Shown: positions 6,952-62,313 of the stretch, piece by piece
Layout of the letters: every line of letters begins with the position of its first letter
Numbering within the stretch: position 1 is the stretch's first letter
Virus record (IMG/VR): IMGVR_UViG_3300031227_000013
Source of the DNA: a virus
Direction: 5' to 3' (one strand)
DNA length: 64,000 bases
Notes under the pieces: generated by a model
Seen by the model: only the letters and a program-made list of their open reading frames with translations
Databases searched by the model: none
Told to the model about the DNA's origin: nothing
Program-made: the position numbers and the translations under genes

Positions 6952-7605
6952 TTATGTTAAATTTACCTTGTACTTCATCTTCAATTGAGGATTAGACCTA
7001 CTTAATTCAAGTAGTTTTTTCAGTCTATAAGATCTCATTTTCTGCTCAGAAGTTGCCTTCTCATTTCTTATGCCGAATGGTCCTGACATGATATTATTAA
7101 AATACTTCTTCATTTCCCTATTCTTCTTCTGCCATTCAGGATTGGCTGCTAAATCTGGATGTACTCCAGCTGAACCATACCTAGTTTCTTGTCCTGATTT
7201 TGCACCTTGCTTAGCTCCCCCAATAGGATCTTTAGCTGTTTGAGCTCCTATTGTTGCTCCGACAGTTATTGGATTAAATGCCTCTTTCTCCATAACAGGT
7301 CGAGGTGTATGTTTTCCAAATACTAATGGAATACTCCTTTTCAATGAATTACTCCATCCTAAGTTTCCTTTAGAAATATTACCTATATCCACTTTAAAAT
7401 CATGTATGCTTTTATCTACATTTTCTGGAACTTCCTTTGCTATACCTCCTGCTACTCCTCCAGTTACAAAATCTCGTAACCATGATGCAGACCTCTGCTT
7501 CAGTTCCCTATTACGCATATGCCTATCAAGTTCTTCCTGTCGTGTAGGCATAATCCCTAAAGCTTCCTTCTCCATATACCCTTTATAGTATGCTAGTTTG
7601 TTCAT
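6952..7605 (-). CDS. Leader-family protein (MNKLAYYKGYMEKEA)
   Basis: Leader DNA is identical to that of 6557..6919; internal VMEKEAF motif. Confidence 0.7.
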   Translation of the reverse strand: MNKLAYYKGYMEKEALGIMPTRQEELDRHMRNRELKQRSASWLRDFVTGGVAGGIAKEVPENVDKSIHDFKVDIGNISKGNLGWSNSLKRSIPLVFGKHTPRPVMEKEAFNPITVGATIGAQTAKDPIGGAKQGAKSGQETRYGSAGVHPDLAANPEWQKKNREMKKYFNNIMSGPFGIRNEKATSEQKMRSYRLKKLLELSRSNPQLKMKYKVNLT

Positions 7606-9890
7606 TTTCTTTTGTCCTTAATATTTTTATATAGTTCTTGTCCACTGACAACACTCGGGATATATGATGTGCCTCCCCCTTCTGATGTGGCTCCTTTTTG
7701 AGCTGCATCTAAAAAAGACTTCTTAAGATCGAATCCTCCGAGGCGTGTTACCCAGTCCGGATCTGTTGATACAATGTCCCGGACACGGGATACAAACGGT
7801 TCAAATGGAGGGACATCCCTGTGTACTACTATATTACCTGTTTTAGCAGAAGACAACTTTTTTGCGACATTAGCTGTGATTTTAGTGCCTATAGAATAAT
7901 GCAGTACCGGTTTCTCCAGATACATTCCTACCGACTGTTTAGGATTCTGTAACGTCGAAGTAGGTCTGGGTCTATAATCTCTGACAACATCGTCGTAGGG
8001 TATAACATCGTTAATAAAATGTCCTTCGTATCCGTTAGGATCCGTTACCCGAACTCTGTTTATAAATCCACGGGAGATAGCTTCTATATTACGTCTATGG
8101 TTACCAGCCCCGTTATCCTTTAAAATCTTATTGTACCTCTCTGTGAAGTAGCGTCTGCCCTCTCCGATGCCTTTGTATTTGACAACCTCTCCTGGATTAG
8201 GAACTCCGGAAGATAAAGCATCTCCCGCTTCCATACGCTGTCCTGTCTTTACTTCTAACTTTCTATCTCCGGGTACATAATGTTCCTCGGAGTTGATATG
8301 TACATACCAGCCCCCTTGTGGAGCATCTTCTATCTTTCCTATGGAACCGTCTGTAGAAGCTAATGTAGCGGAGCCTATAAAATTCTTAGGAACCTGTACG
8401 AACTGGTCTATCTCTTTAAACCCTGTTACCTTCTTATCGTCTTCTCCGACAACCCCACCACTATGTTTACTGCTGTTGGATACTATCATTCCGTTAGCCA
8501 ATACAAAGAGATGATCTCTGCTATCTACTTCGAGATCGTATGTCTGTACTTCTCTGAGTCCTTCGCAATAACTCATCCAGCCCAGTACATTCTCTCCGGA
8601 CCTTTTAAATATAGCTGTGCCCAGAGACAGCAGAGGAATTATTTTATGTTTATTAAGTTCGCAGTCCCCCATAGGGAAGCCTAGTACTTTATGTTCCTTG
8701 GTAGCTATTAGATATTCACTGAATTTAACATCCAGACTTGCGAATATAGTATGGTAGCATTCTTTGATACCGTTGTTAAAAACGTTAAGAACTTTTACAG
8801 GGGATGTATTACATTGTACATCAGACCCCATAACAGATTCTCCAACCTGTATATCCTTGATCTTCCTGACAGATCCGTCTGCCATTCTTACAAGAGTGTT
8901 TTCTTCTAAACATAGTCCTGCCTGTGTAGTAGGTTCCGCGATAGCTCTGGCAGCTGTAACTCCTACAGCATCCCCTATATCAGGGAATTCTCCCCCTTCT
9001 CTGCGTCCGGAACATTTAGAACATATTCCTGTAGCGGCCTGACAGGTAGCTGCGGAACGCACATAAACAGGTTGGTCTTCCAGTAAAGGAAGATGTTCCT
9101 TATTTATTTCTGTTCCTGCAGGTAATCCGTTAACAGGTTTAGCGAGAATAGATCCGACATTGTCCGAATCATCCCCGTCTACTTCCAGCCCGACCTCTTG
9201 TGCTCCGCAATCATTCTCTGTAACTACTACTCTATGTGCGGCTTGTGTTAACTGCTTACCAAAATACCCACTGTCTGCTGTAGCGAACTGTACATCGCTA
9301 TACCCTTTTCTAGAGCCATACGAAGCGGCCCAGTATTCAATCGGAGACACACCCTCTCCATACCCGTGGAGTCCCGGAATAGGGACAGGTTTATTTTTAT
9401 GGTCGAGAACGAGCATGTCTCCGAACATTAGCTGCATGAGCTGGGCTGTGTTACCTCTAGCCCCTACACGAACCTGCTCTGTGAAACTGTTTTTGCCTCC
9501 GCCCGATCTTAGAAGGAGATTCTGAACTTTCTTCATTTCGGGAACAAGCAGTTTAACTATTTTTTCGCCCTTCTGATCGGAAGTTAGAGTCGGGCTGTTA
9601 GCTATCCTGGCAACATCGTCTCTGTATTTATTTCTGAGCTGTTTAATGGCAGGGGGCAGTTTAAGATCGTTAAGAGATAAACTTGCGGTCCTGCCATAGT
9701 CATTGACAGCCATTCGGGATACATCGCTTACCTTCTGTAAGGTATCTATATATCCATCGGGGTCGTCTTCAGCTACACTTGATAACAGAGCAGACAGAGA
9801 CTTCTTATCGAGTTCTCTGCCTTCATCTCTGTATTTCTCAGGAAGCGCTCTGTTAAAAAGCACTTTACCTATTGTTGTAGTATCGGGCAT
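7602..9890 (-). CDS. rpoC: DNA-directed RNA polymerase beta' C-terminal subunit, with mini-intein
   Basis: TTIGKVLFN, GARGNTAQLMQL, SYGSRKGYSDVQFATADSGYFGKQL (bridge helix), DCG...RSAATC...ICSKC Zn site, trigger loop EPTTQAGL/SSKHSGG, VTGFKEIDQF (cf. ITGGLPRV). Confidence 0.92.
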   Translation of the reverse strand: MPDTTTIGKVLFNRALPEKYRDEGRELDKKSLSALLSSVAEDDPDGYIDTLQKVSDVSRMAVNDYGRTASLSLNDLKLPPAIKQLRNKYRDDVARIANSPTLTSDQKGEKIVKLLVPEMKKVQNLLLRSGGGKNSFTEQVRVGARGNTAQLMQLMFGDMLVLDHKNKPVPIPGLHGYGEGVSPIEYWAASYGSRKGYSDVQFATADSGYFGKQLTQAAHRVVVTENDCGAQEVGLEVDGDDSDNVGSILAKPVNGLPAGTEINKEHLPLLEDQPVYVRSAATCQAATGICSKCSGRREGGEFPDIGDAVGVTAARAIAEPTTQAGLCLEENTLVRMADGSVRKIKDIQVGESVMGSDVQCNTSPVKVLNVFNNGIKECYHTIFASLDVKFSEYLIATKEHKVLGFPMGDCELNKHKIIPLLSLGTAIFKRSGENVLGWMSYCEGLREVQTYDLEVDSRDHLFVLANGMIVSNSSKHSGGVVGEDDKKVTGFKEIDQFVQVPKNFIGSATLASTDGSIGKIEDAPQGGWYVHINSEEHYVPGDRKLEVKTGQRMEAGDALSSGVPNPGEVVKYKGIGEGRRYFTERYNKILKDNGAGNHRRNIEAISRGFINRVRVTDPNGYEGHFINDVIPYDDVVRDYRPRPTSTLQNPKQSVGMYLEKPVLHYSIGTKITANVAKKLSSAKTGNIVVHRDVPPFEPFVSRVRDIVSTDPDWVTRLGGFDLKKSFLDAAQKGATSEGGGTSYIPSVVSGQELYKNIKDKRK
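8475..8912 (-). mobile_element. Mini-intein (146 aa) in the beta'-C trigger loop
   Basis: Starts CLEENTLVRMADG, ends TYDLEVDSRDHLFVLANGMIVSN, followed by Ser; no endonuclease domain. Confidence 0.9.
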
Positions 9891-13089: not shown

Positions 13090-13695
13090 TTATTCACCTC
13101 TTCTAACAGCCCGTGCTTTGTTAGCGTTGACAACAGCTTGTCTGCTTATAGGGGCTTTGTGGGCTGTATTCTCGCGTCTGGTAAGATTAGCATTTATAAC
13201 TTCCTGCTTGCTAATGGGGGCTCCTGTATTCATTACTCTTCCTGTCTTATTCTGATAATCCAGATAATTCTTTGTTATATCCTGTAGAGCACTATATGTT
13301 CGAGCCCCTGTGACTCCTGCAGCTACTATTGGTTTAGCATTGTCTGAATAACCTTCCCACATTCTTCTGGGAGTACTCTGTTTAAGAGATTCCTTCATAG
13401 TTTTATCTGCGTTGCGTTTTATATTCTTTAATATATCTTTATTCCAGCCCTTTGTAGGATCTTTAAAAACTTGCTTTCCAAAATCGTATGCTGTGAAGGC
13501 TGCATTAGTAGTAGGTTTACTTACTCCGTAATCAACCCCTCTATTAGCAGTACCTAACCTAACAGCTTCCTCTACGCCCCCTTCAACTAACTTAGACTTA
13601 TCATATAGCTTTTTAAAAGTAGTTCCCATACTATATGGAGCCGAGTTAAAAGCTTCCTTCTCTATATATCCCTGATAGTACGCTAGTTTATTCAT
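13090..13695 (-). CDS. Leader-family protein (MNKLAYYQGYIEKEA)
   Basis: Shared leader; TAATG overlap with the RNAP stop codon. Confidence 0.7.
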   Translation of the reverse strand: MNKLAYYQGYIEKEAFNSAPYSMGTTFKKLYDKSKLVEGGVEEAVRLGTANRGVDYGVSKPTTNAAFTAYDFGKQVFKDPTKGWNKDILKNIKRNADKTMKESLKQSTPRRMWEGYSDNAKPIVAAGVTGARTYSALQDITKNYLDYQNKTGRVMNTGAPISKQEVINANLTRRENTAHKAPISRQAVVNANKARAVRRGE

Positions 13696-16600
13696 TATAC
13701 TCCTCGTTTCCTGATCTTAACAGGTGTATCTATATCTATTTTACCTGTCTTGTATGCTTTGACAGCATCGGCTTCTGTTTCGAAAACAACCGGAGTTCCT
13801 TTGAGAGGAGTCTTTGTGGCAAGATGTGCTCCCTGTACATATTCCTGATCGGGTTTATACATCAGATTAAAATCTCTTGCTCCGAACAGAATCTTTTCCG
13901 GCATCATTTTATCTCTAGCTTCCGCAACTGCTTTAGCAGAGGAAGGCACATGTATCGTCATTGTATCTCCGTCGAAGTCCAGGTTAAACCCTTTAACTAT
14001 ATGCGGAGGTACTTGTAGAGTATCTCCCTTTGTAAGAATAGGATTAGCCGCAAGTATACTCCACTTGTGCATTGTCGGAGCTCTATTCATTAGAATAGGA
14101 CGTTCCTCCATAACAGCCCGCAGAGCGACCAAAGCGTCACCTTTTCTTTCAGATACAGATTTAGCGGCTTCTGTCGCTTTGTATCCCCCGCGCACCATAT
14201 GTCTTATAACGAAAGGCTCGTACAGTTCCCATGCTCTGTTCTCGGGCAATCCAACCTGATTTAATTTGAGAGAAGGATTAGGAGTTACTACAGCTCTCGA
14301 GGAAAGGTCAACAGCCCCTCCTACCATACGACGCTGCATCATCCCGTGCTTCGGACTTCCTTTTCCAAAGATAGTCTTTAAAAGCCCTCCAACACGCTTC
14401 TCCTGTAGTTCGACGCTATCGGGGTCTCCCAACCCTGAGATAGCTTTAAAGCTGTTATACAGCCGTTCCCGTACTTCAGGAAGATATTCGTCGGGTAGAG
14501 TAGTCTTGGCATCTCTTAGATCGTTTCTGCTGTGCAGGAGTTCTCTATATAGAATATTGAAGTCCGAAGACATATTCATATCGTCTGTTACAACAATAGG
14601 TCTGAACTTAGGAGGCAGTACAGGAACACGGGTCAGCATAAATTCGGTCGGGCTGACTTTATGTTCTTTCATAGACTGCAGAGCTCTGAGTCTTTTAACA
14701 GCGTTGTCTCTTCTGGAGGCTGATGCTGTCTTGACGTCGTTTAATGCGCTGCGTGTTTCCTGATCGACATCTATTTCGGAAAGCATCTTATACATAGCTT
14801 TCCCGCCTTTAACTCCTTTATACTCTTTACGTCCTGCTAGAAGATCTGTATACTCCTTCTGTTTGAGATTGAGTATTCTCCTCAGGAAGTCTTCCATCAC
14901 TGGATTTGGAACAGGCTCGTCTAGTTTGATGTACGAGAATCTGTTTCCTTCCGCTCCTCCTGTTAAGGTTTCGTCGAACAGTCCGCCTTTAACCGGCTTG
15001 AACTGTTTGGGATCGAATGTATCTGCGGTCTGTATCTGTCTGGTTCCTGTAAGTTCTTTGGCGTTCTCATTCGTCATCGCAAATATATTAAGTTTGTTCT
15101 TATCCTTATGTATATTAACTCCGGCAGCCTGTATCATCGCAAGGAACTTCTTGTATATAAAGCTTTCGTCGGGAACCGTAGGAGTACGACCCATTTTAAG
15201 ATCGCGCCAGTAGTCGTCGTTTTTAGACCCTCTTATCAGTTTGGCGTCTTTCATTATCTCTTTAGCGCCGTGGCTTACAAGGGCTGCAATTTCCATGCTA
15301 TTACTAACAAGAACTCCTCCCGCAGTATATGAATGTGTTTTATCAACAGTAAAATCATAAACATTAATTTCGTCTATTCCCGGTTTATCATGTTTATAAG
15401 GTCTAATATCTTTAATAGATACCGGAACTTTACCCATTCTATTAACAATATCCAATTTACGGGGAGGATTTACCAGTTGTCTCTCAGCTACCAGCTTTTT
15501 TAATTTCTTTTTTGTTTTAGGAATAATAGAGGCAGGAACATTTCTGGCTAACATATCTATCAGTATCCAACAAGATTCTGCTGTTAAATAAATAAACCAC
15601 TCTTCTTCCCGTCCTGAAGCTTTGTATATTTTTAGAGAAGATATATTTAATTTATTACCCAGCCATCTATGTAAAAGAACAACTTCTTCGTAAGTAAATC
15701 CATGGGTAGCTATTGCACCTTGTAAAGCAACCCCTCCCTTGACTTTAGAACGATTGGAAATAGATCCATCATCCAATACCCACATACAGATACCTAATTC
15801 ATCCACATGGCTCAGCCATTCTTCAGTTACATGTTTTTTACCGTCTTTTAAACAAACTGCTTTCATCTGATCAACTACATAAGCAGTAGGCATTGTTACT
15901 AATCCACGTCCATAACTTTTACCTGTTCTTTTTAAAAAACTAGGCTTACAATCACTTCTATAAGCCATCAGCCCCGCCAGAACCTTCTGCTTAAAATCCA
16001 TGTATTCTATTTGCTTTGTAGAATGCATAATCTGGATAACACTATTAAAATAGGAATCCCCCAACATACCTCCATACAATACATCCAGCTGATCTTTTGT
16101 TACCAGAGGCCCCCATGAAATAAGTTTATCATCAACTGTTAAATCACCGGCAAGTAATTCACATCCGTCAAATGTATATACCTTATGATTTTTAGTAGGA
16201 TATAAACAGGAGGTATACTTTATCTTTCTGTCTCCTGTCTCACAGGGAATACCTGATACTTCAACACACAATATATCTTCTATTTTAGCTCGATAAGTAA
16301 ACCAGTCCGTAATGGGTTTAAATGTCCACTCCTCCTTATCTTCATCAAATGTCCAGACCTGCTCGGCAAAACGTTTTTCAACTAATCTACCTATTTGTAT
16401 TTCTCCATGAATAGTTTTTATTTTTTGACCTGCTGGAAAGCAACCTATTCTCTTACTCTTCCCACCGCCTGTAGAGGGCTGTTCGTCCATTGTATATCCT
16501 GAGAACGACTTACCTCCGGACTTGGCTTCCGCGGTATGCTGTAACTTAAAAAAGTGTGAAACTCCGTTAAATACTTTAGGTATCTTACGTCCTGTTGTAG

Positions 16601-19600
16601 GGTCGTATATATCGTCTGTATCGCTAAGCCCATGCTTCTTGAGTTCCGTCTGTGCTAGATCTATAAAGGATTCGTCCGGGTCGTCTGTAAAACTTGGTAA
16701 TATATAAGGTTTACCTGTCTTGGTAGCTACCTTACCCAGTGACGATTCTATGAGCTGTGATGAATTCGTTCTGGATATTACACCTACAGGGTTAAGAATA
16801 ATTTCGTAAGGCTTACCGTCCTTATCGTGAATCATTTTGTTATCGGGAATTATATCTCCGACAACGCCCTTACCTCCGTAGAAATTTGCCAGTTTGTCGC
16901 CCCGCTTAGTTGTAGCGTTGGCTCGGACATAGACTTTCCAGCCCTCTTTATTCTTAACAACATCTGTGACAACGCCCGGGTCTTCATGCTCCCACTTCAC
17001 AGAAGAGTCTCTTGTTAGCCTACGACCCATTGTTCCGGGTCCGGGCTGTCTTGTCTTTGTAGATAGAATAAGCGGATCTCCCTGTCTGACGAGAGTTCCC
17101 GGTTTGACTGTACCTTCTTTACCGATAGTCTTGAACTGTTCCGCGGTAAACGTTCCCGGAAACATTGCTGTATACTTATCTTTAAGAACTTCCACTCCGC
17201 TTTCTTCACGAAGCTTATTAGCATACATATGTTCTGAGTTTAGTTTCTTCGCGGCACTTTCTGATATGACTATAGCATCTTCATGCACAGCCCCTTTATA
17301 AGGCATGTAAGCTACCCGGAGATTAAGTCCCAGAGCTGCTGTACCCTTATCGTCTGTAAAGTTAGATCCTGCGATAGCCTGTCCTTTTTTAACACGTTGT
17401 GCTCCCTTTACAAAAGGAATTGTACGCACGGATGTTTTTCTGCTGAAAGGAAAGTTATCGTAGGTATCGTACGAGGATGTTGTTCCGTCGTCGTTCTGTG
17501 TAGTTATCTTATCTTTGCTTATGGATTTAACGATACCATCTTTTTCAGAAGTTATTCTACCCATATGCGGGCTGATGTAATCGTATATATCCTTAGTACC
17601 GATTCTTGTACGGACAAGAGGAGCTTCTCTGTTTGTAAGAGGAAGCGCCTGATTGTGCATTTTCGACCCCATTAGCAAACGCATAGCTTTTATCCCGGAA
17701 GCCATAGGCACCAAGTTAGCTCCTGTACTGAAGAGATCGGAACCGCTGTTTATCATGTAATCCACAGATGTTCGGGGAACATACTTTATACCCTCTCCCT
17801 TTACCATCGCAGGAATAAACTTACCTTTGTATTTAAAACTTTCCGGAAAGGCTACAATAGATCTGGATGCTGTTACAGAATCCACATACTCCTGCTTACC
17901 TGTTTTTGTATTCAGGAACTTCTGATATACTTTACCGTCTTTCCCGTACTGAGTTCCCTGAGCCATCTTCATATCGACACCGACCCTTAGAGAGTTACCG
18001 CACCAGAAAGCTTTGCCTTTACGTCTTACATATACAAGACCTCCCTGAACAGTAGCACAATACACTACACCTTTATATTCTTTTTCGAAAGTATCGTTCT
18101 TTAGAATATAAATAATACCTCCGTCGATTTCCATATTAAAACCTTTACCCAGAATATCTTCGGCAAGCGTCATAACATATCCTATACCATTAGTCTTAAC
18201 ACGCATTCTATGATTAGGAGTAACAAGGAAGTTAACCTGTTTTTTACAACCTATCATCAGCCCGTCGTAATCGTAAGACTGAAGTCCTTCCGGAGTCTTA
18301 TAATAGACACAGTCATGAATACGGCAGGCCAGTTCGTCCTGCATTGTGATATCTTTAAATAGTTTCCAGCCCGTACTTGTTTTGATTTCTGTCTTGTCGT
18401 CGTAACATTCAGGACTTCTCACCATATCTACATACCCACGATATGTGGGCTGTACAGCTCTTGCTTCGTCAGGTACTGCATCCAGAGAGCTTATTCCACC
18501 CTCTCCCATTCTGGTAACCCTGTACGATTGATCTAAAGCGTCTAGAGGATTTATCTCCTCGAGCATCTGACTCAGCCCAGATGTATTGAACAGGCTGTCC
18601 ACATGTTTATTAAGCATTCCGGATTGTAAAGAGGATAAGTTACCCTGATTGGTAATCTTCCATAGTTTATTCCTGAGTACATTACCCGGATCTTTGAGTA
18701 TACGTTCGGCGAAATAGTTATGGGGCCCGTACATTCTCTGGAACTCCATAGAATCCCTATCGTCTGATTTGGCTGTTCCTCTGGATATGTTCAAAAGCTT
18801 TTTAGTAACATCTAGGAAAAGACCTGAACCGACATTGGAATGCGGAGCACCTAATGTTGTCTGTGTAGCGTCCGGGTCCAGCTCCATAGCATTAAAAGAT
18901 TGTTTAAGTGTTTCTATATCTCCCGCTTCCGGACCCATCATCTTTACTTCGGCTGTCTTATTCATACGCATGTGCTTAGGGATAAGGGTCTGTATAGCAC
19001 TGTGTACAGCTTGAGTTGTAGTACCGGCTCTGTTCCTCTTAAGGATTTCCGGCCCCCATGCATCTTCCAGTAAACTGTCCTGAACGCCTAGCGCCTGCAG
19101 TACCGGATAGAGTTTGATCTTTCTACCTCCGGATCTGATGTAGAACTCGGCTGTCTTAGGATTCATGGATACTTTAAAACTGTTTCCTGTTCCCTGTCTG
19201 ACATTGACGTGGGATTCGTATGTACCGTCTCCGGCTACTTTACTGTATACATTAGGAATAAGTCTAAACTGATTGATAAGGGATTGTTCGACTCCGTTAC
19301 GGACGAAGGTCCCTCTTTCTGTAAGATAAGGTACATTGAGTACAGTACGTTTACTTGTACGGTCTATGACTTTACCTGTCTCGTTGTCTCTGAGAGTCCA
19401 GTTACCCTGCAGTTTCTTTGTAAGAGACCTGTTGTTAAGGATAGCTTCCTTCTGCTCTTTGTATGAAAAACGTTTCGTATCTTTGTAGGAAGGATTATCC
19501 AACTCCAGGGTATATCTCTGATTGGATAAAGGAAAGCGTTGTTTAACAGCGTCTATAGAATAATCAAAAATCTGCTGTCTACGGTTATCGTAGTCGTCGA

Positions 19601-19691
19601 AAGACGTAAGGACACCTTTATCTTTCGATAGGGTGTCCGAGATAAATTTCATCCCCGTTGAAGCAGGGGGAGTCGAAGGATTGATAGGCAT
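13695..19691 (-). CDS. rpoBC: DNA-directed RNA polymerase beta fused to the beta' N-terminal half, with two inteins
   Basis: Beta motifs PYLTERGTFVRNGVE, MGSKMHNQA, RGDKLANFYGGKGVV, LQHTAEAK, KRIG/SMEIAAL; beta' motifs PVLPPKFRP, NRAPTMHKWSI and catalytic NLDFDGD. Confidence 0.95.
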   Translation of the reverse strand: MPINPSTPPASTGMKFISDTLSKDKGVLTSFDDYDNRRQQIFDYSIDAVKQRFPLSNQRYTLELDNPSYKDTKRFSYKEQKEAILNNRSLTKKLQGNWTLRDNETGKVIDRTSKRTVLNVPYLTERGTFVRNGVEQSLINQFRLIPNVYSKVAGDGTYESHVNVRQGTGNSFKVSMNPKTAEFYIRSGGRKIKLYPVLQALGVQDSLLEDAWGPEILKRNRAGTTTQAVHSAIQTLIPKHMRMNKTAEVKMMGPEAGDIETLKQSFNAMELDPDATQTTLGAPHSNVGSGLFLDVTKKLLNISRGTAKSDDRDSMEFQRMYGPHNYFAERILKDPGNVLRNKLWKITNQGNLSSLQSGMLNKHVDSLFNTSGLSQMLEEINPLDALDQSYRVTRMGEGGISSLDAVPDEARAVQPTYRGYVDMVRSPECYDDKTEIKTSTGWKLFKDITMQDELACRIHDCVYYKTPEGLQSYDYDGLMIGCKKQVNFLVTPNHRMRVKTNGIGYVMTLAEDILGKGFNMEIDGGIIYILKNDTFEKEYKGVVYCATVQGGLVYVRRKGKAFWCGNSLRVGVDMKMAQGTQYGKDGKVYQKFLNTKTGKQEYVDSVTASRSIVAFPESFKYKGKFIPAMVKGEGIKYVPRTSVDYMINSGSDLFSTGANLVPMASGIKAMRLLMGSKMHNQALPLTNREAPLVRTRIGTKDIYDYISPHMGRITSEKDGIVKSISKDKITTQNDDGTTSSYDTYDNFPFSRKTSVRTIPFVKGAQRVKKGQAIAGSNFTDDKGTAALGLNLRVAYMPYKGAVHEDAIVISESAAKKLNSEHMYANKLREESGVEVLKDKYTAMFPGTFTAEQFKTIGKEGTVKPGTLVRQGDPLILSTKTRQPGPGTMGRRLTRDSSVKWEHEDPGVVTDVVKNKEGWKVYVRANATTKRGDKLANFYGGKGVVGDIIPDNKMIHDKDGKPYEIILNPVGVISRTNSSQLIESSLGKVATKTGKPYILPSFTDDPDESFIDLAQTELKKHGLSDTDDIYDPTTGRKIPKVFNGVSHFFKLQHTAEAKSGGKSFSGYTMDEQPSTGGGKSKRIGCFPAGQKIKTIHGEIQIGRLVEKRFAEQVWTFDEDKEEWTFKPITDWFTYRAKIEDILCVEVSGIPCETGDRKIKYTSCLYPTKNHKVYTFDGCELLAGDLTVDDKLISWGPLVTKDQLDVLYGGMLGDSYFNSVIQIMHSTKQIEYMDFKQKVLAGLMAYRSDCKPSFLKRTGKSYGRGLVTMPTAYVVDQMKAVCLKDGKKHVTEEWLSHVDELGICMWVLDDGSISNRSKVKGGVALQGAIATHGFTYEEVVLLHRWLGNKLNISSLKIYKASGREEEWFIYLTAESCWILIDMLARNVPASIIPKTKKKLKKLVAERQLVNPPRKLDIVNRMGKVPVSIKDIRPYKHDKPGIDEINVYDFTVDKTHSYTAGGVLVSNSMEIAALVSHGAKEIMKDAKLIRGSKNDDYWRDLKMGRTPTVPDESFIYKKFLAMIQAAGVNIHKDKNKLNIFAMTNENAKELTGTRQIQTADTFDPKQFKPVKGGLFDETLTGGAEGNRFSYIKLDEPVPNPVMEDFLRRILNLKQKEYTDLLAGRKEYKGVKGGKAMYKMLSEIDVDQETRSALNDVKTASASRRDNAVKRLRALQSMKEHKVSPTEFMLTRVPVLPPKFRPIVVTDDMNMSSDFNILYRELLHSRNDLRDAKTTLPDEYLPEVRERLYNSFKAISGLGDPDSVELQEKRVGGLLKTIFGKGSPKHGMMQRRMVGGAVDLSSRAVVTPNPSLKLNQVGLPENRAWELYEPFVIRHMVRGGYKATEAAKSVSERKGDALVALRAVMEERPILMNRAPTMHKWSILAANPILTKGDTLQVPPHIVKGFNLDFDGDTMTIHVPSSAKAVAEARDKMMPEKILFGARDFNLMYKPDQEYVQGAHLATKTPLKGTPVVFETEADAVKAYKTGKIDIDTPVKIRKRGV
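15300..16442 (-). mobile_element. Intein (381 aa) with LAGLIDADG-type homing endonuclease
   Basis: Starts CFPAGQKIKT, ends VYDFTVDKTHSYTAGGVLVSN, followed by Ser; internal GGMLGDSYF and GICMWVLDDGS motifs. Confidence 0.92.
17994..18407 (-). mobile_element. Mini-intein (138 aa) in the beta subunit
   Basis: Starts CYDDKTEIKTSTGWK, ends VYCATVQGGLVYVRRKGKAFWCGN, followed by Ser. Confidence 0.9.
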
Positions 19692-49477: not shown

Positions 49478-49679
49478 TGTTGTAAGGACACCCCCCTTTA
49501 AATACCCAGCCCTCTCCTTTTCTAAATATTATAGGGTAGTGGAACATATTACCTGTATCTCCCTTTATTGTTACCTTATTAAAATGACACGCATGCTCTT
49601 CACACCTACAATTTACTTTATCCCCTGTGTTCAACTGCCCCTTGTGTTTAAGTAGTTGATTCAGATTATTTCTTAGCAT
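49470..49679 (-). CDS. GQL/GW family paralog (first gene of the array)
   Basis: RNNLNQLLKHKGQLNTGD...KGEGWVF; AGGAG RBS. Confidence 0.8.
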   Translation of the reverse strand: MLRNNLNQLLKHKGQLNTGDKVNCRCEEHACHFNKVTIKGDTGNMFHYPIIFRKGEGWVFKGGCPYNNV

Positions 49680-49692
49680 ATAAAGCTCCTAT

Positions 49693-49719
49693 GTTTATAG
49701 TTTACTGTAAACTATAAAC
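49693..49719. promoter_or_regulatory. Perfect 27-bp palindrome between the array promoter and the first RBS
   Basis: GTTTATAGTTTAC-T-GTAAACTATAAAC. Confidence 0.6.
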
Positions 49720-49747
49720 TAAAAATATTTATAGTTATTGTCTACAG

Positions 49748-49783
49748 TTATTATGCCAATAAAAAGAGTTTTATTAAGTAGCT
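49748..49783 (-). promoter_or_regulatory. Conserved promoter likely driving the paralog array (CTTAAT-N17-CATAAT)
   Basis: Motif copy directly upstream of the array. Confidence 0.75.
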
Positions 49784-50016
49784 AAAAGAAGAGACATTTA
49801 CCCTCTCTCTCCTTCCCCACTCGCACTAAGCCCCGTGAGGGACCCTGCTTTTCTCCTTGGCCAAAAGGAGACGGGCTGAGTTTAACTTCACACCTCGTAG
49901 GTGCGGATCCCCGGTACAACAGTGTCTTTCGACATGGAAAGAGTTTTTTACCCATACCCACTAAGTATAGAACCTCGGGATGATCAGTCCGTTGGGTAGA
50001 GATGCTATTCTCTACT
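49784..50016 (-). ncRNA. Putative structured ncRNA (~230 nt)
   Basis: Sits between the promoter at 50018-50053 and a hairpin/U-tract; GC-rich with multiple stems, including GTAGAGA/TCTCTAC, TGTC-GAAA-GACA, CACCT/AGGTG and CTCCTT/AAGGAG. Confidence 0.6.
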
Positions 50017-50017
50017 A

Positions 50018-50053
50018 ATATATACTGCCAAAAAAACAGCATTAATTAAGTAG
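50018..50053 (-). promoter_or_regulatory. Conserved promoter (CTTAAT-N17-CAGTAT)
   Basis: Motif copy. Confidence 0.65.
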
Positions 50054-50473
50054 TTTTTTTAGAGATAGTCCTTCCTTCCTCATGTGTTTTGCCTGCCAGG
50101 GATATTCTTTACCTCTGGGGACTACCCCTTTTTGACGCCATTCACATTTAAACTTTATGCATGCATAAGGGCGTCTTTTTTTATACTCAGTACAAATCCC
50201 CCTGACTTTATCGTACTTCAGGCATGTAAAATGGAACGACATCTTATCGCAATTATCTATCGAACGACATCCGACTTTTCTAAAATTTTTCTCCATAAAG
50301 TCAAGATCCTTGTGAATAGCATCCTCCCTAGCATGTTCTGCTTCCCAGTCAGGTTCTTGAGAGGCTGTGCTTATTAGGCTAATACAAAATCTATAACAAC
50401 ACCAGCCCCTACACTCTTTACATACATCTTTTTTATTCATCGGGCACCTTCTTAATAATACTGGGAATGGCAT
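50042..50473 (-). CDS. YkgJ-family (CxxCxxCC) Zn/Fe-chelating protein
   Basis: CKECRGWCC...CLKY...ICTEYKKRRPYACIKFKC; true start is probably MNKKD. Confidence 0.65.
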   Translation of the reverse strand: MPFPVLLRRCPMNKKDVCKECRGWCCYRFCISLISTASQEPDWEAEHAREDAIHKDLDFMEKNFRKVGCRSIDNCDKMSFHFTCLKYDKVRGICTEYKKRRPYACIKFKCEWRQKGVVPRGKEYPWQAKHMRKEGLSLKKLLN

Positions 50474-50818: not shown

Positions 50819-50856
50819 TATATAATGCCAACAAAAGGAGTTTTATTAAGTAGCTA
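50819..50856 (-). promoter_or_regulatory. Conserved promoter (CTTAAT-N17-CATTAT)
   Basis: Motif copy. Confidence 0.75.
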
Positions 50857-50881
50857 AAAGAAAGCCCAATACCGGGCTTTC
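50857..50881 (-). terminator. Intrinsic terminator
   Basis: AGAAAGCCC-GGTATT-GGGCTTTCT followed by TTT. Confidence 0.8.
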
Positions 50882-51000
50882 TAATCAGCTAAGCCTGTAG
50901 AGCTCAGCTGTTGCGCCCCTATTTTTTATATTCGGTGAAAAAATAGGGAATAACACCATCTCTATACAGAGGGCCTTCTTCCATGACATAAAGGGATCCT
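50882..51000 (-). ncRNA. Putative small RNA (or 34-codon ORF) in its own promoter-terminator unit
   Basis: Hairpins CCCTATTTTTT/AAAAAATAGGG and CAGCTGAGC/GCTTAGCTG; flanked by promoter 51007-51043 and terminator 50857-50881. Confidence 0.45.
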
Positions 51001-51006
51001 CATCAG

Positions 51007-51043
51007 TATATAATGCCAATAAAATGGATTTAATTAAGTAGCT
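51007..51043 (-). promoter_or_regulatory. Conserved promoter (CTTAAT-N17-CATTAT)
   Basis: Motif copy. Confidence 0.75.
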
Positions 51044-55328: not shown

Positions 55329-55568
55329 ACTGTAATTCCTTTCTGTTAAATAAAATATGTTTATAATAGTAATGGTTATTGTTAGCTTTGGTTGGAAGCT
55401 TTTTTCACCCATAGCGTCTTGGTCAGTGATCTGATTATTTTTCTCATGATATCAGGAAACATATCAATCCTCTGTACTATAATCTCTTTTGACCATCTTC
55501 CAACTGCAAGTACCCAGAACAGTACCATCGGTAACATCTTTCGCCTCCTGCCTATTACAAACAAAAAA

Positions 55569-55677
55569 TGGCGAGTAGTGGCGGGATTTATTACCCGCGA
55601 TTCAGTGCCTCTGTTGTCAACCATCAGCAGACACCTTCCCTCCTTCTCAAGAGGAGCCTTTCTTGCATACACTACTC
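55569..55677 (-). tRNA. Atypical tRNA-Ser(UGA)-like gene with 8-bp acceptor stem, long variable arm and encoded CCA
   Basis: GAGTAGTG/CACTACTC+G+CCA; anticodon arm CTCCT-CTTGAGA-AGGAG; T arm GCGGG-TAATAAAT-CCCGC; collapsed D arm. Confidence 0.65.
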
Positions 55678-55683
55678 ATAAAA

Positions 55684-55771
55684 TGGACGGTGCAGGACTT
55701 GTCCGTTAGAACCTGGACTCACCTGCATTCTCCGGTTTAGAGGACCGGTGCTATTATCAGCCAGACCGTCC
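55684..55771 (-). tRNA. Atypical tRNA-Arg(UCU)-like gene with C33 and a hairpin inserted in the T loop
   Basis: GGACGGT/ACCGTCC acceptor; GCT/AGC D stem; CCGGT-CCTCTAA-ACCGG; GCAGG...CCTGC enclosing GTCC-AGGTTCTAAC-GGAC. Confidence 0.55.
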
Positions 55772-55781
55772 AAAAACTATA

Positions 55782-57111: not shown

Positions 57112-58233
57112 TTATGAACTGTTAAACTCCTCTATGTTTTTTGAGTCATTACTCCTACTTATGAGTACGTTATCTATTCCCAATGTACTGGAAATAAATG
57201 TAATGAAGTCTGACTCATTATTACATCGTAGGAAACAACCTTTATAATAAAGACAATACTCCGACAGATGGTCGAGACATGTTACTACCAATGTCCGGGA
57301 ACCTGCGTTACGAATAACATCATCTTTATTAATAGCATACTCGAGCATAGACACATCGAGTATAGCTCTTCGAAACTCCCCCTGATACTTACCTGTTTGG
57401 TTTGTTTCCAGGGGGTCTGTCAATATATTATGTTTGATATCTTCCTTAGACATAAATCCGTTACCGTGCCTGGTCTGATAGGCTCTGGTTACCAGATATA
57501 TATGAAAGTCGGATGAACCTTGTATAGCGACAGCATTCTTACTTCCCGTGTTTGAACGTGTGACATTCGGGAAAAACCCAAAGTTCTGATCCAGTAGTAA
57601 TCCCTGTGACCCCTCGTAAATAGTAGAAGAATACTCAGGCATCTCGTGGACCAGTTTTATATCATCACATCTTGCTATCTTCTCACAGCTTTCATAGAAT
57701 GCAGTGAGAGAATATGTATCTCTTTTCTTAGTCATGTAATAATGTGCGATGAGACGAATTCTTTTTTTTAGAATCTCCGGATAGAACAAATCCATGAAAG
57801 TTAAGGAATAATGATCCTCTTCTCTCTGGAAAGTCTGCCCTACTCCAACACCACACGAACCATGCTTATTGACCTCTTCTGTTTCTCTGTTACTTCCTAT
57901 ATCATTAGGAGTAGTCACAGGACACTTGGCATCTATATAAATTACAGGCTTCAAACCTTTACTCTTAAGTAATTCATATTCTACCATCAAACCTACAGGC
58001 TCCACTGTACAATACTTAGACCAGTATGTAGGTAATCCCCTGAAAGTACCCGAACCGAAATTAGAGAATACATGTCTAAAATCCCCGGATACAACAGTAT
58101 GCCCAGCTTGGTGACCCCCTGAAAACCTAATGTTGAGGGCTTTAGTGGAAAACCAGGAATGAGCTAAGTAGTCTGTCACCAGACCCTTAGCTTCATCCCC
58201 TGCTCCCAGCCCCACGACGAGGCTACTGATCAC
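57112..58233 (-). CDS. Adenylosuccinate synthetase-like (PurA family) protein
   Basis: GLGAGDEAKG, RFSGGHQAGHT, GSCGVGVG, YEGSQGLLLD, PNVTRSNTG, TRAYQTRHGNG. Confidence 0.85.
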   Translation of the reverse strand: MISSLVVGLGAGDEAKGLVTDYLAHSWFSTKALNIRFSGGHQAGHTVVSGDFRHVFSNFGSGTFRGLPTYWSKYCTVEPVGLMVEYELLKSKGLKPVIYIDAKCPVTTPNDIGSNRETEEVNKHGSCGVGVGQTFQREEDHYSLTFMDLFYPEILKKRIRLIAHYYMTKKRDTYSLTAFYESCEKIARCDDIKLVHEMPEYSSTIYEGSQGLLLDQNFGFFPNVTRSNTGSKNAVAIQGSSDFHIYLVTRAYQTRHGNGFMSKEDIKHNILTDPLETNQTGKYQGEFRRAILDVSMLEYAINKDDVIRNAGSRTLVVTCLDHLSEYCLYYKGCFLRCNNESDFITFISSTLGIDNVLISRSNDSKNIEEFNSS

Positions 58234-62049: not shown

Positions 62050-62275
62050 TTTAAAGATTAAAGTAAAATAAATACCGCTGGATTCCCAGACGCATTTGGA
62101 CTGCACGACCTTCATATTCAGTGGGTTCCTATAGCGCCATAACTGAATAGATCCGGTATTTAAAGATTGAACGGCTTTACCCAGAGACCGAAAACTCCGT
62201 GACGCTACTTAGTCGACCTTTCGCGACATCCCGATTTAAGCATCGTTGAGAGGCTTAGGAGGTTAAAACCCTACG
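62050..62275 (-). ncRNA. Putative structured leader RNA/ncRNA
   Basis: Follows the promoter; multi-branch junction closed by AAATACCG/CGGTATTT with TATTCAGT/ACTGAATA, GCA/TGC and CTGG/CCAG stems. Confidence 0.5.
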
Positions 62276-62278
62276 TTA

Positions 62279-62313
62279 GTTATTATGCCAATAAACAGCC
62301 TTTAATTAAGCTA
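62279..62313 (-). promoter_or_regulatory. Conserved promoter (CTTAAT-N17-CATAAT)
   Basis: Motif copy. Confidence 0.75.

Follow-up and report, generated by a model that had tools for sequence, protein, structure and literature searches.

What does the GC-rich segment of about 233 nt encode, if anything, that separates a three-gene operon from a 15-kb array of ~46 tiny paralogous genes in the genome of an uncultured phage? An initial annotation of this locus had proposed a novel phage non-coding RNA, and we followed this proposal through the ends of the putative transcript, its composition and fold, its coding capacity and its possible relatives. The window that was analysed, a stretch of 64,000 nt, is the reverse complement of genome bases 114901-178900 in a 185,256-bp IMG/VR virus record, which has direct terminal repeats and is rated 100% complete; positions below are those of the window unless they are marked as genome positions. 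Nearly all long ORFs were carried on the minus strand of the window, and for this reason the candidate unit was to be read on that strand, where its features were located at about 50016..49784. Upstream of it lies a 143-aa gene, which is the last of the three-gene operon, and downstream lies the array. The unit also adjoins NAD-salvage genes, and a NAMPT gene is present in the phage.

The phage carries a split multisubunit RNA polymerase with inteins. The beta subunit and the N-terminal part of beta' were found as one 1998-aa frame with a LAGLIDADG intein inside (13695-19691, minus strand), and the C-terminal part of beta' (762 aa), with a Hint/intein segment, was found at window 7602-9890 on the same strand. 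A protein at 57112-58233 (minus strand) matched PHROG 1211 (2-aminooxy adenylosuccinate synthetase, PurZ-like) with E = 3e-51, which hints that the phage may replace adenine by 2-aminoadenine. The phage portal showed 32% identity to those of Vibrio phages D69, D181 and D148 and 28% to that of Salmonella phage Arash; portal relatives further included two short contigs at 69% identity and many sequences at 25-38%, and none of the closest NAMPT relatives was above 49% identity. The nearest relative found has ~70% nucleotide identity across the portal region and is represented by two portal contigs of 4.7 kb and 11 kb (IMGVR_UViG_3300035698_021637 and 3300005935_006507). A repeat of ~55 nt, with 80-86% identity, was shared between a contig of the relative with the 69% portal (779-848) and six sites of the phage genome (genome 144884, 145240, 151652, 165202, 171280 and 171980), and probably represents a regulatory element conserved in the region of the structural genes.

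The unit had been described as having its own promoter, and one was indeed present at 50053..50020 (minus strand), with the form CTACTTAAT-N13-TTGGCAG-TATATA. Its -35-like element, CTACTTAAT (50053..50045), is located inside the final codons of the upstream 143-aa gene, and its extended -10 of the form TG-n-CAGTAT (50030..50022) is located 3' of a T-rich spacer. From the position of this promoter, transcription is predicted to start at about A50016/G50015. The same motif recurs in the genome as CTACTTAAT-N13-TTGGCAT-WATAWA, which can also be written CTTAAT-N13-TTGGCAT-WATAWA, and a 25-nt stretch of the unit's promoter was 96% identical to the promoter at genome 102393-102417. The core TTGGCA[TG]WATWH was found in 13 copies on the coding strand, one of which is that of the unit, and in no copy on the other strand, against a mean of 0.38 in shuffled genomes. 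A generic promoter scan read one copy, the array promoter, as TTAATA-16-TG-CATAAT, and the promoter class reads as sigma-70-like with an extended -10. The next promoter of this class (49781..49750, minus strand; CTACTTAAT at 49781..49773 and TTGGCAT at 49759..49753) drives the array of small paralogs, and the unit is thereby flanked on both sides by copies of the same motif. Since the promoter class is common to them, co-expression of the unit with the neighbouring small ORFs and the array is likely.

At the other end of the unit, a terminator-type hairpin was found at 49816..49782 (minus strand; -14.6 kcal/mol), with a purine-rich 5' arm and CUCUUCUU as its 3' arm, followed by TTTT (49787..49784) and AG. 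The same layout of a hairpin, TTTTAG and CTACTTAAT is shared by five other junctions of the genome, whose hairpins have -12.9 to -17.5 kcal/mol and whose T-runs are 4-7 long, and this agreement upheld the description of a terminator-like end, though a generic terminator scan gave no call at the 3' hairpin of the unit. The hairpin reads as a terminator of the phage's usual type, but a modest one; because it is modest and is followed by only four U, the 3' end of the unit may not be discrete. The end of the unit abuts the next promoter directly. No terminator was found between the upstream 143-aa gene and the unit, and the unit is for this reason also the 3'UTR of the upstream three-gene operon. 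As a sequence prediction, the locus thus presents a short transcription unit, whose promoter and intrinsic terminator are no more than ~250 nt apart and enclose no gene. Beyond this end, a perfect 12-bp AT-rich palindrome, TTTATAGTTTAC-A-GTAAACTATAAA (49694-49718, minus strand), lies downstream of the array promoter and ahead of the RBS that serves the first gene of the array (ATG at 49679). The palindrome could be an operator or a 5'UTR hairpin, and the Rfam scan gave only a chance-level match to RAGATH-27 overlapping it.

The candidate small RNA body enclosed by these two ends (49784..50016, minus strand; ~233 nt, 49% GC) forms a GC island. Its GC content was 0.50-0.56 against 0.22-0.34 in the non-coding flanks, which ranked it among the highest ~2% of 200-nt windows for a genome of 40% GC and bore out the description of a GC-rich unit in an AT-rich background. 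A 5'-terminal hairpin, GUAGAGA/UCUCUAC (49996..50015; 7 bp with a 6-nt loop), was obtained in every predicted fold and starts at the second base of the predicted transcript. The predicted folds further contained a hairpin CUAUACU/GGGUAUG (49952..49970), with several G-U pairs and the first CUUAGUG in its loop, a 7-bp hairpin CGCACCU-ACG-AGGUGUG with a triloop (49889..49905), and a 7-bp hairpin UCUCCUU-UUGGCC-AAGGAGA (49852..49871), all on the minus strand. Of the three hairpins named in the initial annotation, the 5' hairpin and the ACG-loop hairpin were present in the MFE or centroid structure, and the third, UGUC-GAAA-GACA with a GNRA loop (49923..49934, minus strand), is there in the sequence but was outcompeted in the folds by the alternative stem UCUUUC/GAAAGA (49942..49925, minus strand), which is part of the MFE. 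The two copies of CTTAGTG that had been pointed out were both found.

Two long-range pairings had been suggested as well, and they fared differently. The first, formed by AUCCC (49981..49977) and GGGAU (49911..49907) together with GGU/ACC, encloses a three-hairpin domain (49907..49981, minus strand); the 193-nt core (MFE and centroid) and the 261-nt fold both contain it, and in the 233-nt fold it gives way to other pairings. The second, CUCAGCCC/GGGCUUAG, is feasible with 7 bp and one mismatch but was absent from the MFE, where the segment pairs with the upstream ACGGACUGA. The segment in question, CUCAGCCCG (49872..49880, minus strand), has two possible partners, ACGGACUGA (49992..49984) and CGGGGCUUAG (49835..49826), only one of which it can engage at a time; the CUCAGCCCG-CGGGGCUUAG option is the second long-range helix of the annotation.

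The folding energy was -82.6 kcal/mol for the sense strand and -70.5 kcal/mol for the antisense strand. Against dinucleotide shuffles, the sense strand reached z = -1.9, with 7 of 200 shuffles as good, and the antisense strand -1.6; against windows of the same GC content from the phage's own genome, the unit was at -1.3 SD, the 8th percentile. Stability beyond chance was therefore marginal only. The mean base-pair distance of the ensemble was 31-43, with several competing helices. The thermodynamics are compatible with a structured RNA without demonstrating one.

The unit had not been assignable to any known family by eye, and the searches agreed with this. With Rfam 15 at gathering thresholds, no match was obtained in the whole window; with E up to 10 over 49500..50300, matches were at chance level only, and inside the RNA body the only one was to msiK, with 13.6 bits against a threshold of 33. 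ARAGORN detected no tRNA or tmRNA in the whole window, and an identity of the unit as either was rejected. A tRNA-like stretch at window 55568-55772 received no call from ARAGORN or Rfam. Outside the window, the genome holds a tRNA-Glu(UUC) at genome 758-834 and a group I intron above the Rfam threshold, with 58.9 bits, at genome ~98861-99115.

Collection of homologs had been proposed as a check of the RNA, and none was recovered. A covariance model, R1, was built on the 193-nt core of the unit. It found no match in 30 related whole phage records, in 80 NAMPT loci, in both contigs of the closest relative, or in 23 pattern-matched loci, and no second match in the phage's own genome, so that neither homologs nor paralogs emerged from ~130 related or pattern-matched loci and records or from the phage itself. 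A blastn search of the region against 50,697 phage records returned nothing, probes derived from the promoter, the array and the RNA gave chance matches at most when IMG/VR, JGI metagenomes and GTDB genomes were scanned for patterns, and scans for the array family in IMG/VR and metagenomes found none. The 143-aa upstream protein had no relatives in IMG/VR, phage records, Pfam or PHROGs, and its only database matches were frameshifted copies from the same phage. The sequence of the ORF that overlaps the unit was recovered in identical form on 26 contigs or assemblies from several sources, the longest of 185,416 bp. This recurrence means that the phage is real and recurrent; since the sequence was identical in 26/26 assemblies, the population yields no variation to compare. 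A decayed array member or another phage gene was also considered as the origin of the unit and was rejected, as its six-frame translations matched neither the rest of the genome nor the array-family profile.

An orphan of this kind may have no function of its own, being either what is left of an acquired gene in decay or chance filler between a promoter and a terminator, and transcribed as a long 3'UTR. The absence of relatives from every collection searched is consistent with such an origin, as is a fold stability that is unexceptional for the GC content, and a GC content above that of the genome together with a residual open frame would fit a degraded foreign coding sequence. Against it stands the dedicated promoter copy, positioned so that a hairpin begins at the 5' end, and phage genomes of such kind are tightly packed; the frame, moreover, has no detectable homolog by which a parent gene could be named. 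We consider a functionless segment unlikely, although it keeps appreciable weight.

The competing helices and the modest terminator bear on another reading, in which the unit would act in cis on the array as its leader or attenuator. Alternative pairings in the RNA would then determine whether a transcript started at the 50031 promoter ends at the 49784 hairpin or continues into the array, and the short RNA would be no more than a terminated by-product. The mutually exclusive pairing of the segments at 49992..49984, 49880..49872 and 49835..49826 would suit a switch of this type, and two AAGGAGA copies, one nearby and one in the 5' arm of the terminator, are likewise alternative partners for UCUCCUU; the terminator is itself weak with its four U. 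In phage 201phi2-1, 8 of 11 sRNAs come from premature termination in 5'UTRs (PMC11512511). However, the array has a full promoter of its own directly after the terminator and is for that reason independent of read-through, no riboswitch, aptamer or leader family known to Rfam matched, and ~100 nt of AT-rich DNA, including the separate palindrome, intervene between the terminator and the first RBS. Control of the array by attenuation within the unit is in our judgement distinctly improbable.

Other long leaders follow the same promoter class elsewhere in the genome, and a comparison of the unit with three of them showed no similarity. A GC-rich leader of ~130 nt at genome 65047-65175 is closed by the helix GGCGGGGA/UCCCCGUC and contains a U-run, with a very strong RBS downstream. 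This leader, for which Rfam gave nothing at gathering thresholds and which showed no resemblance to the unit, may represent either another small RNA or an attenuator. At window 62050-62291 (minus strand; promoter core at 62291), more than 200 nt follow the promoter without a good RBS and start codon, and this stretch too had no sequence similarity to the unit. A short unit with the same class of promoter at 50853-51041 (minus strand) contains GAGGA-N7-ATG, then 34 codons of open frame that are hydrophobic in the middle, and finally a clean terminator; it is probably the gene of a small peptide and not an RNA.

An open frame of 86 codons (49782..50042, minus strand) spans the candidate RNA, and the unit could accordingly be the gene of a small basic protein of 57-86 aa, translated either by coupling to the upstream gene, whose stop codon the ATG overlaps (TAATG, 50042), or from GTG 49961 or ATG 49955. 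A stop-free frame of such length covers the whole unit with P ~0.04 in shuffles, the internal GTG at 49961 is preceded by GAGG 11 nt upstream (-7.1 kcal/mol), and the neighbouring short unit at 51019..50853 seems to specify a peptide of 34 aa, for which there is a fair RBS. At the ATG of the frame, however, the SD energy was +2.2 kcal/mol against a median of -8.2 kcal/mol for 42 array genes, in agreement with the earlier remark that the ORF has no credible RBS. The codon score of the frame was -0.05, against 0.215 +/- 0.078 for the 42 array genes; this is ~3.4 SD below their mean, lower than the lowest real small gene (-0.02) and within the range of spurious ORFs. The promoter copy itself makes up the first 10 codons, and the frame continues through the terminator hairpin into TTTTAG; in the NAMPT and 34-aa units, the junctions of which were both read, the stop codon precedes the terminator hairpin.

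Searches with the frame product pointed the same way. The frame itself was the only match both when 1.84 billion representative proteins were searched exhaustively with HMMER and in a word search of 5.8 billion proteins. AlphaFold gave no confident fold, with a pLDDT of 38.9, which is weak evidence because it came from a single-sequence run. With no SD, non-native codon usage and no match but itself, and with the open frame as the only point in its favour, the frame was judged not to be a gene and was rejected as a small protein gene. The unit is probably untranslated, and for translation only a small residual chance is left.

The suggestion that the RNA is a putative dedicated partner, as scaffold, decoy or regulator, of the ~46 SH3/LSm-like barrel proteins of the array, expressed early from the same promoter class as part of a phage-specific RNA-protein system, is a speculation drawn from adjacency alone and is highly improbable; the finding that a GoF mutant of LSm-like T4 proteins stabilises a reporter mRNA, with no more shown (PMC12152347), is a lead for RNA binding by array proteins and not a support for it.

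Taken together, we favour, at about even probability, a non-coding candidate sRNA of ~233 nt that doubles as the 3'UTR of the upstream operon and would act through protein binding or on host RNA. The proposal of a novel phage ncRNA is thus retained for a separate, apparently non-coding unit that matches no known family; a conserved structured RNA is not established, and the predicted long-range helices are mutually exclusive. Transcription would start at ~50016 from the sigma-70-like promoter that overlaps the last codons of the upstream gene, and the predicted transcript would carry the 5' hairpin from its second base and end at the hairpin and U-run at ~49784, in the layout of a 3'UTR small RNA with its own internal promoter. 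The unit would presumably not be translated, and it would be made together with its neighbours of the same promoter class, namely the NAD-salvage neighbourhood, several small ORFs and the array. More speculatively, the RNA may act in trans, whether by binding protein, as a decoy, or on transcripts of the host. Such an action is preferred over pairing with phage mRNAs because complementarity to the phage genome was no higher than in shuffles: a scan for antisense targets in the sense strand gave 38 ten-mers against 34.7 in shuffles, with no enrichment.

If real, a fairly long sRNA with multiple stems would join a very short list from large lytic phages, for which no functions are known. It could also be a handle on early host takeover, since the unit heads the unusual 15-kb array and stands beside NAD-salvage genes. 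Its main value is as a precise target for transcript mapping, with predicted ends at 50016 and 49784 that come from a single genome. The unit is, on this reading, a plausible orphan phage small RNA, and the kind of element is already known.

Several known systems offer points of comparison. T4 encodes two stable RNAs, C and D (species 1 and 2), which are small RNAs of a large lytic phage that are processed from a tRNA cluster and whose function is unknown; unlike them, the unit is ~5.5 kb away from the tRNA-like stretch and has its own promoter. The prohead RNA of phi29 (pRNA, RF00044) is a stand-alone multi-helix phage RNA of 120-174 nt that has its own promoter and binds a phage protein. The unit differs from it in having no match to RF00044, in the type of phage and the context, and in that nothing links it to packaging.

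A comparable layout is that of bacterial sRNAs derived from 3'UTRs, such as MicL and DapZ, which are transcribed from a promoter within the final part of the preceding coding sequence and end at the terminator of the operon. The unit has its promoter in the same kind of position, and it too shares the operon terminator. RNAs of the MicL and DapZ type act by Hfq-dependent seed pairing and are usually shorter; in contrast to them, the unit has no enriched pairing target in the phage genome, and its U-tail is only four residues long.

Further parallels are found in giant phages, where units of <250 bp from promoter to terminator are documented sRNAs, both intergenic and 5'UTR-derived, with no known function (PMC11512511). 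Transcript mapping of Pseudomonas phage 201phi2-1 revealed 11 sRNAs, one of which is conserved across genera, in phiKZ, EL and PA3 (PMC11512511); in phiKZ, a single predicted small RNA was left unconfirmed by Northern blot (PMC8244752). Unlike the sRNAs of 201phi2-1, the unit is known from sequence prediction alone, lacks any detectable relative and has no sequence in common with them. Like the phage described here, however, 201phi2-1 has its own multisubunit RNA polymerase, and its sRNAs, like the unit, are <250 bp, have a phage promoter and an intrinsic terminator and lie between or ahead of protein genes; with ~233 nt and several stems, the candidate would take its place at the long end of their range.
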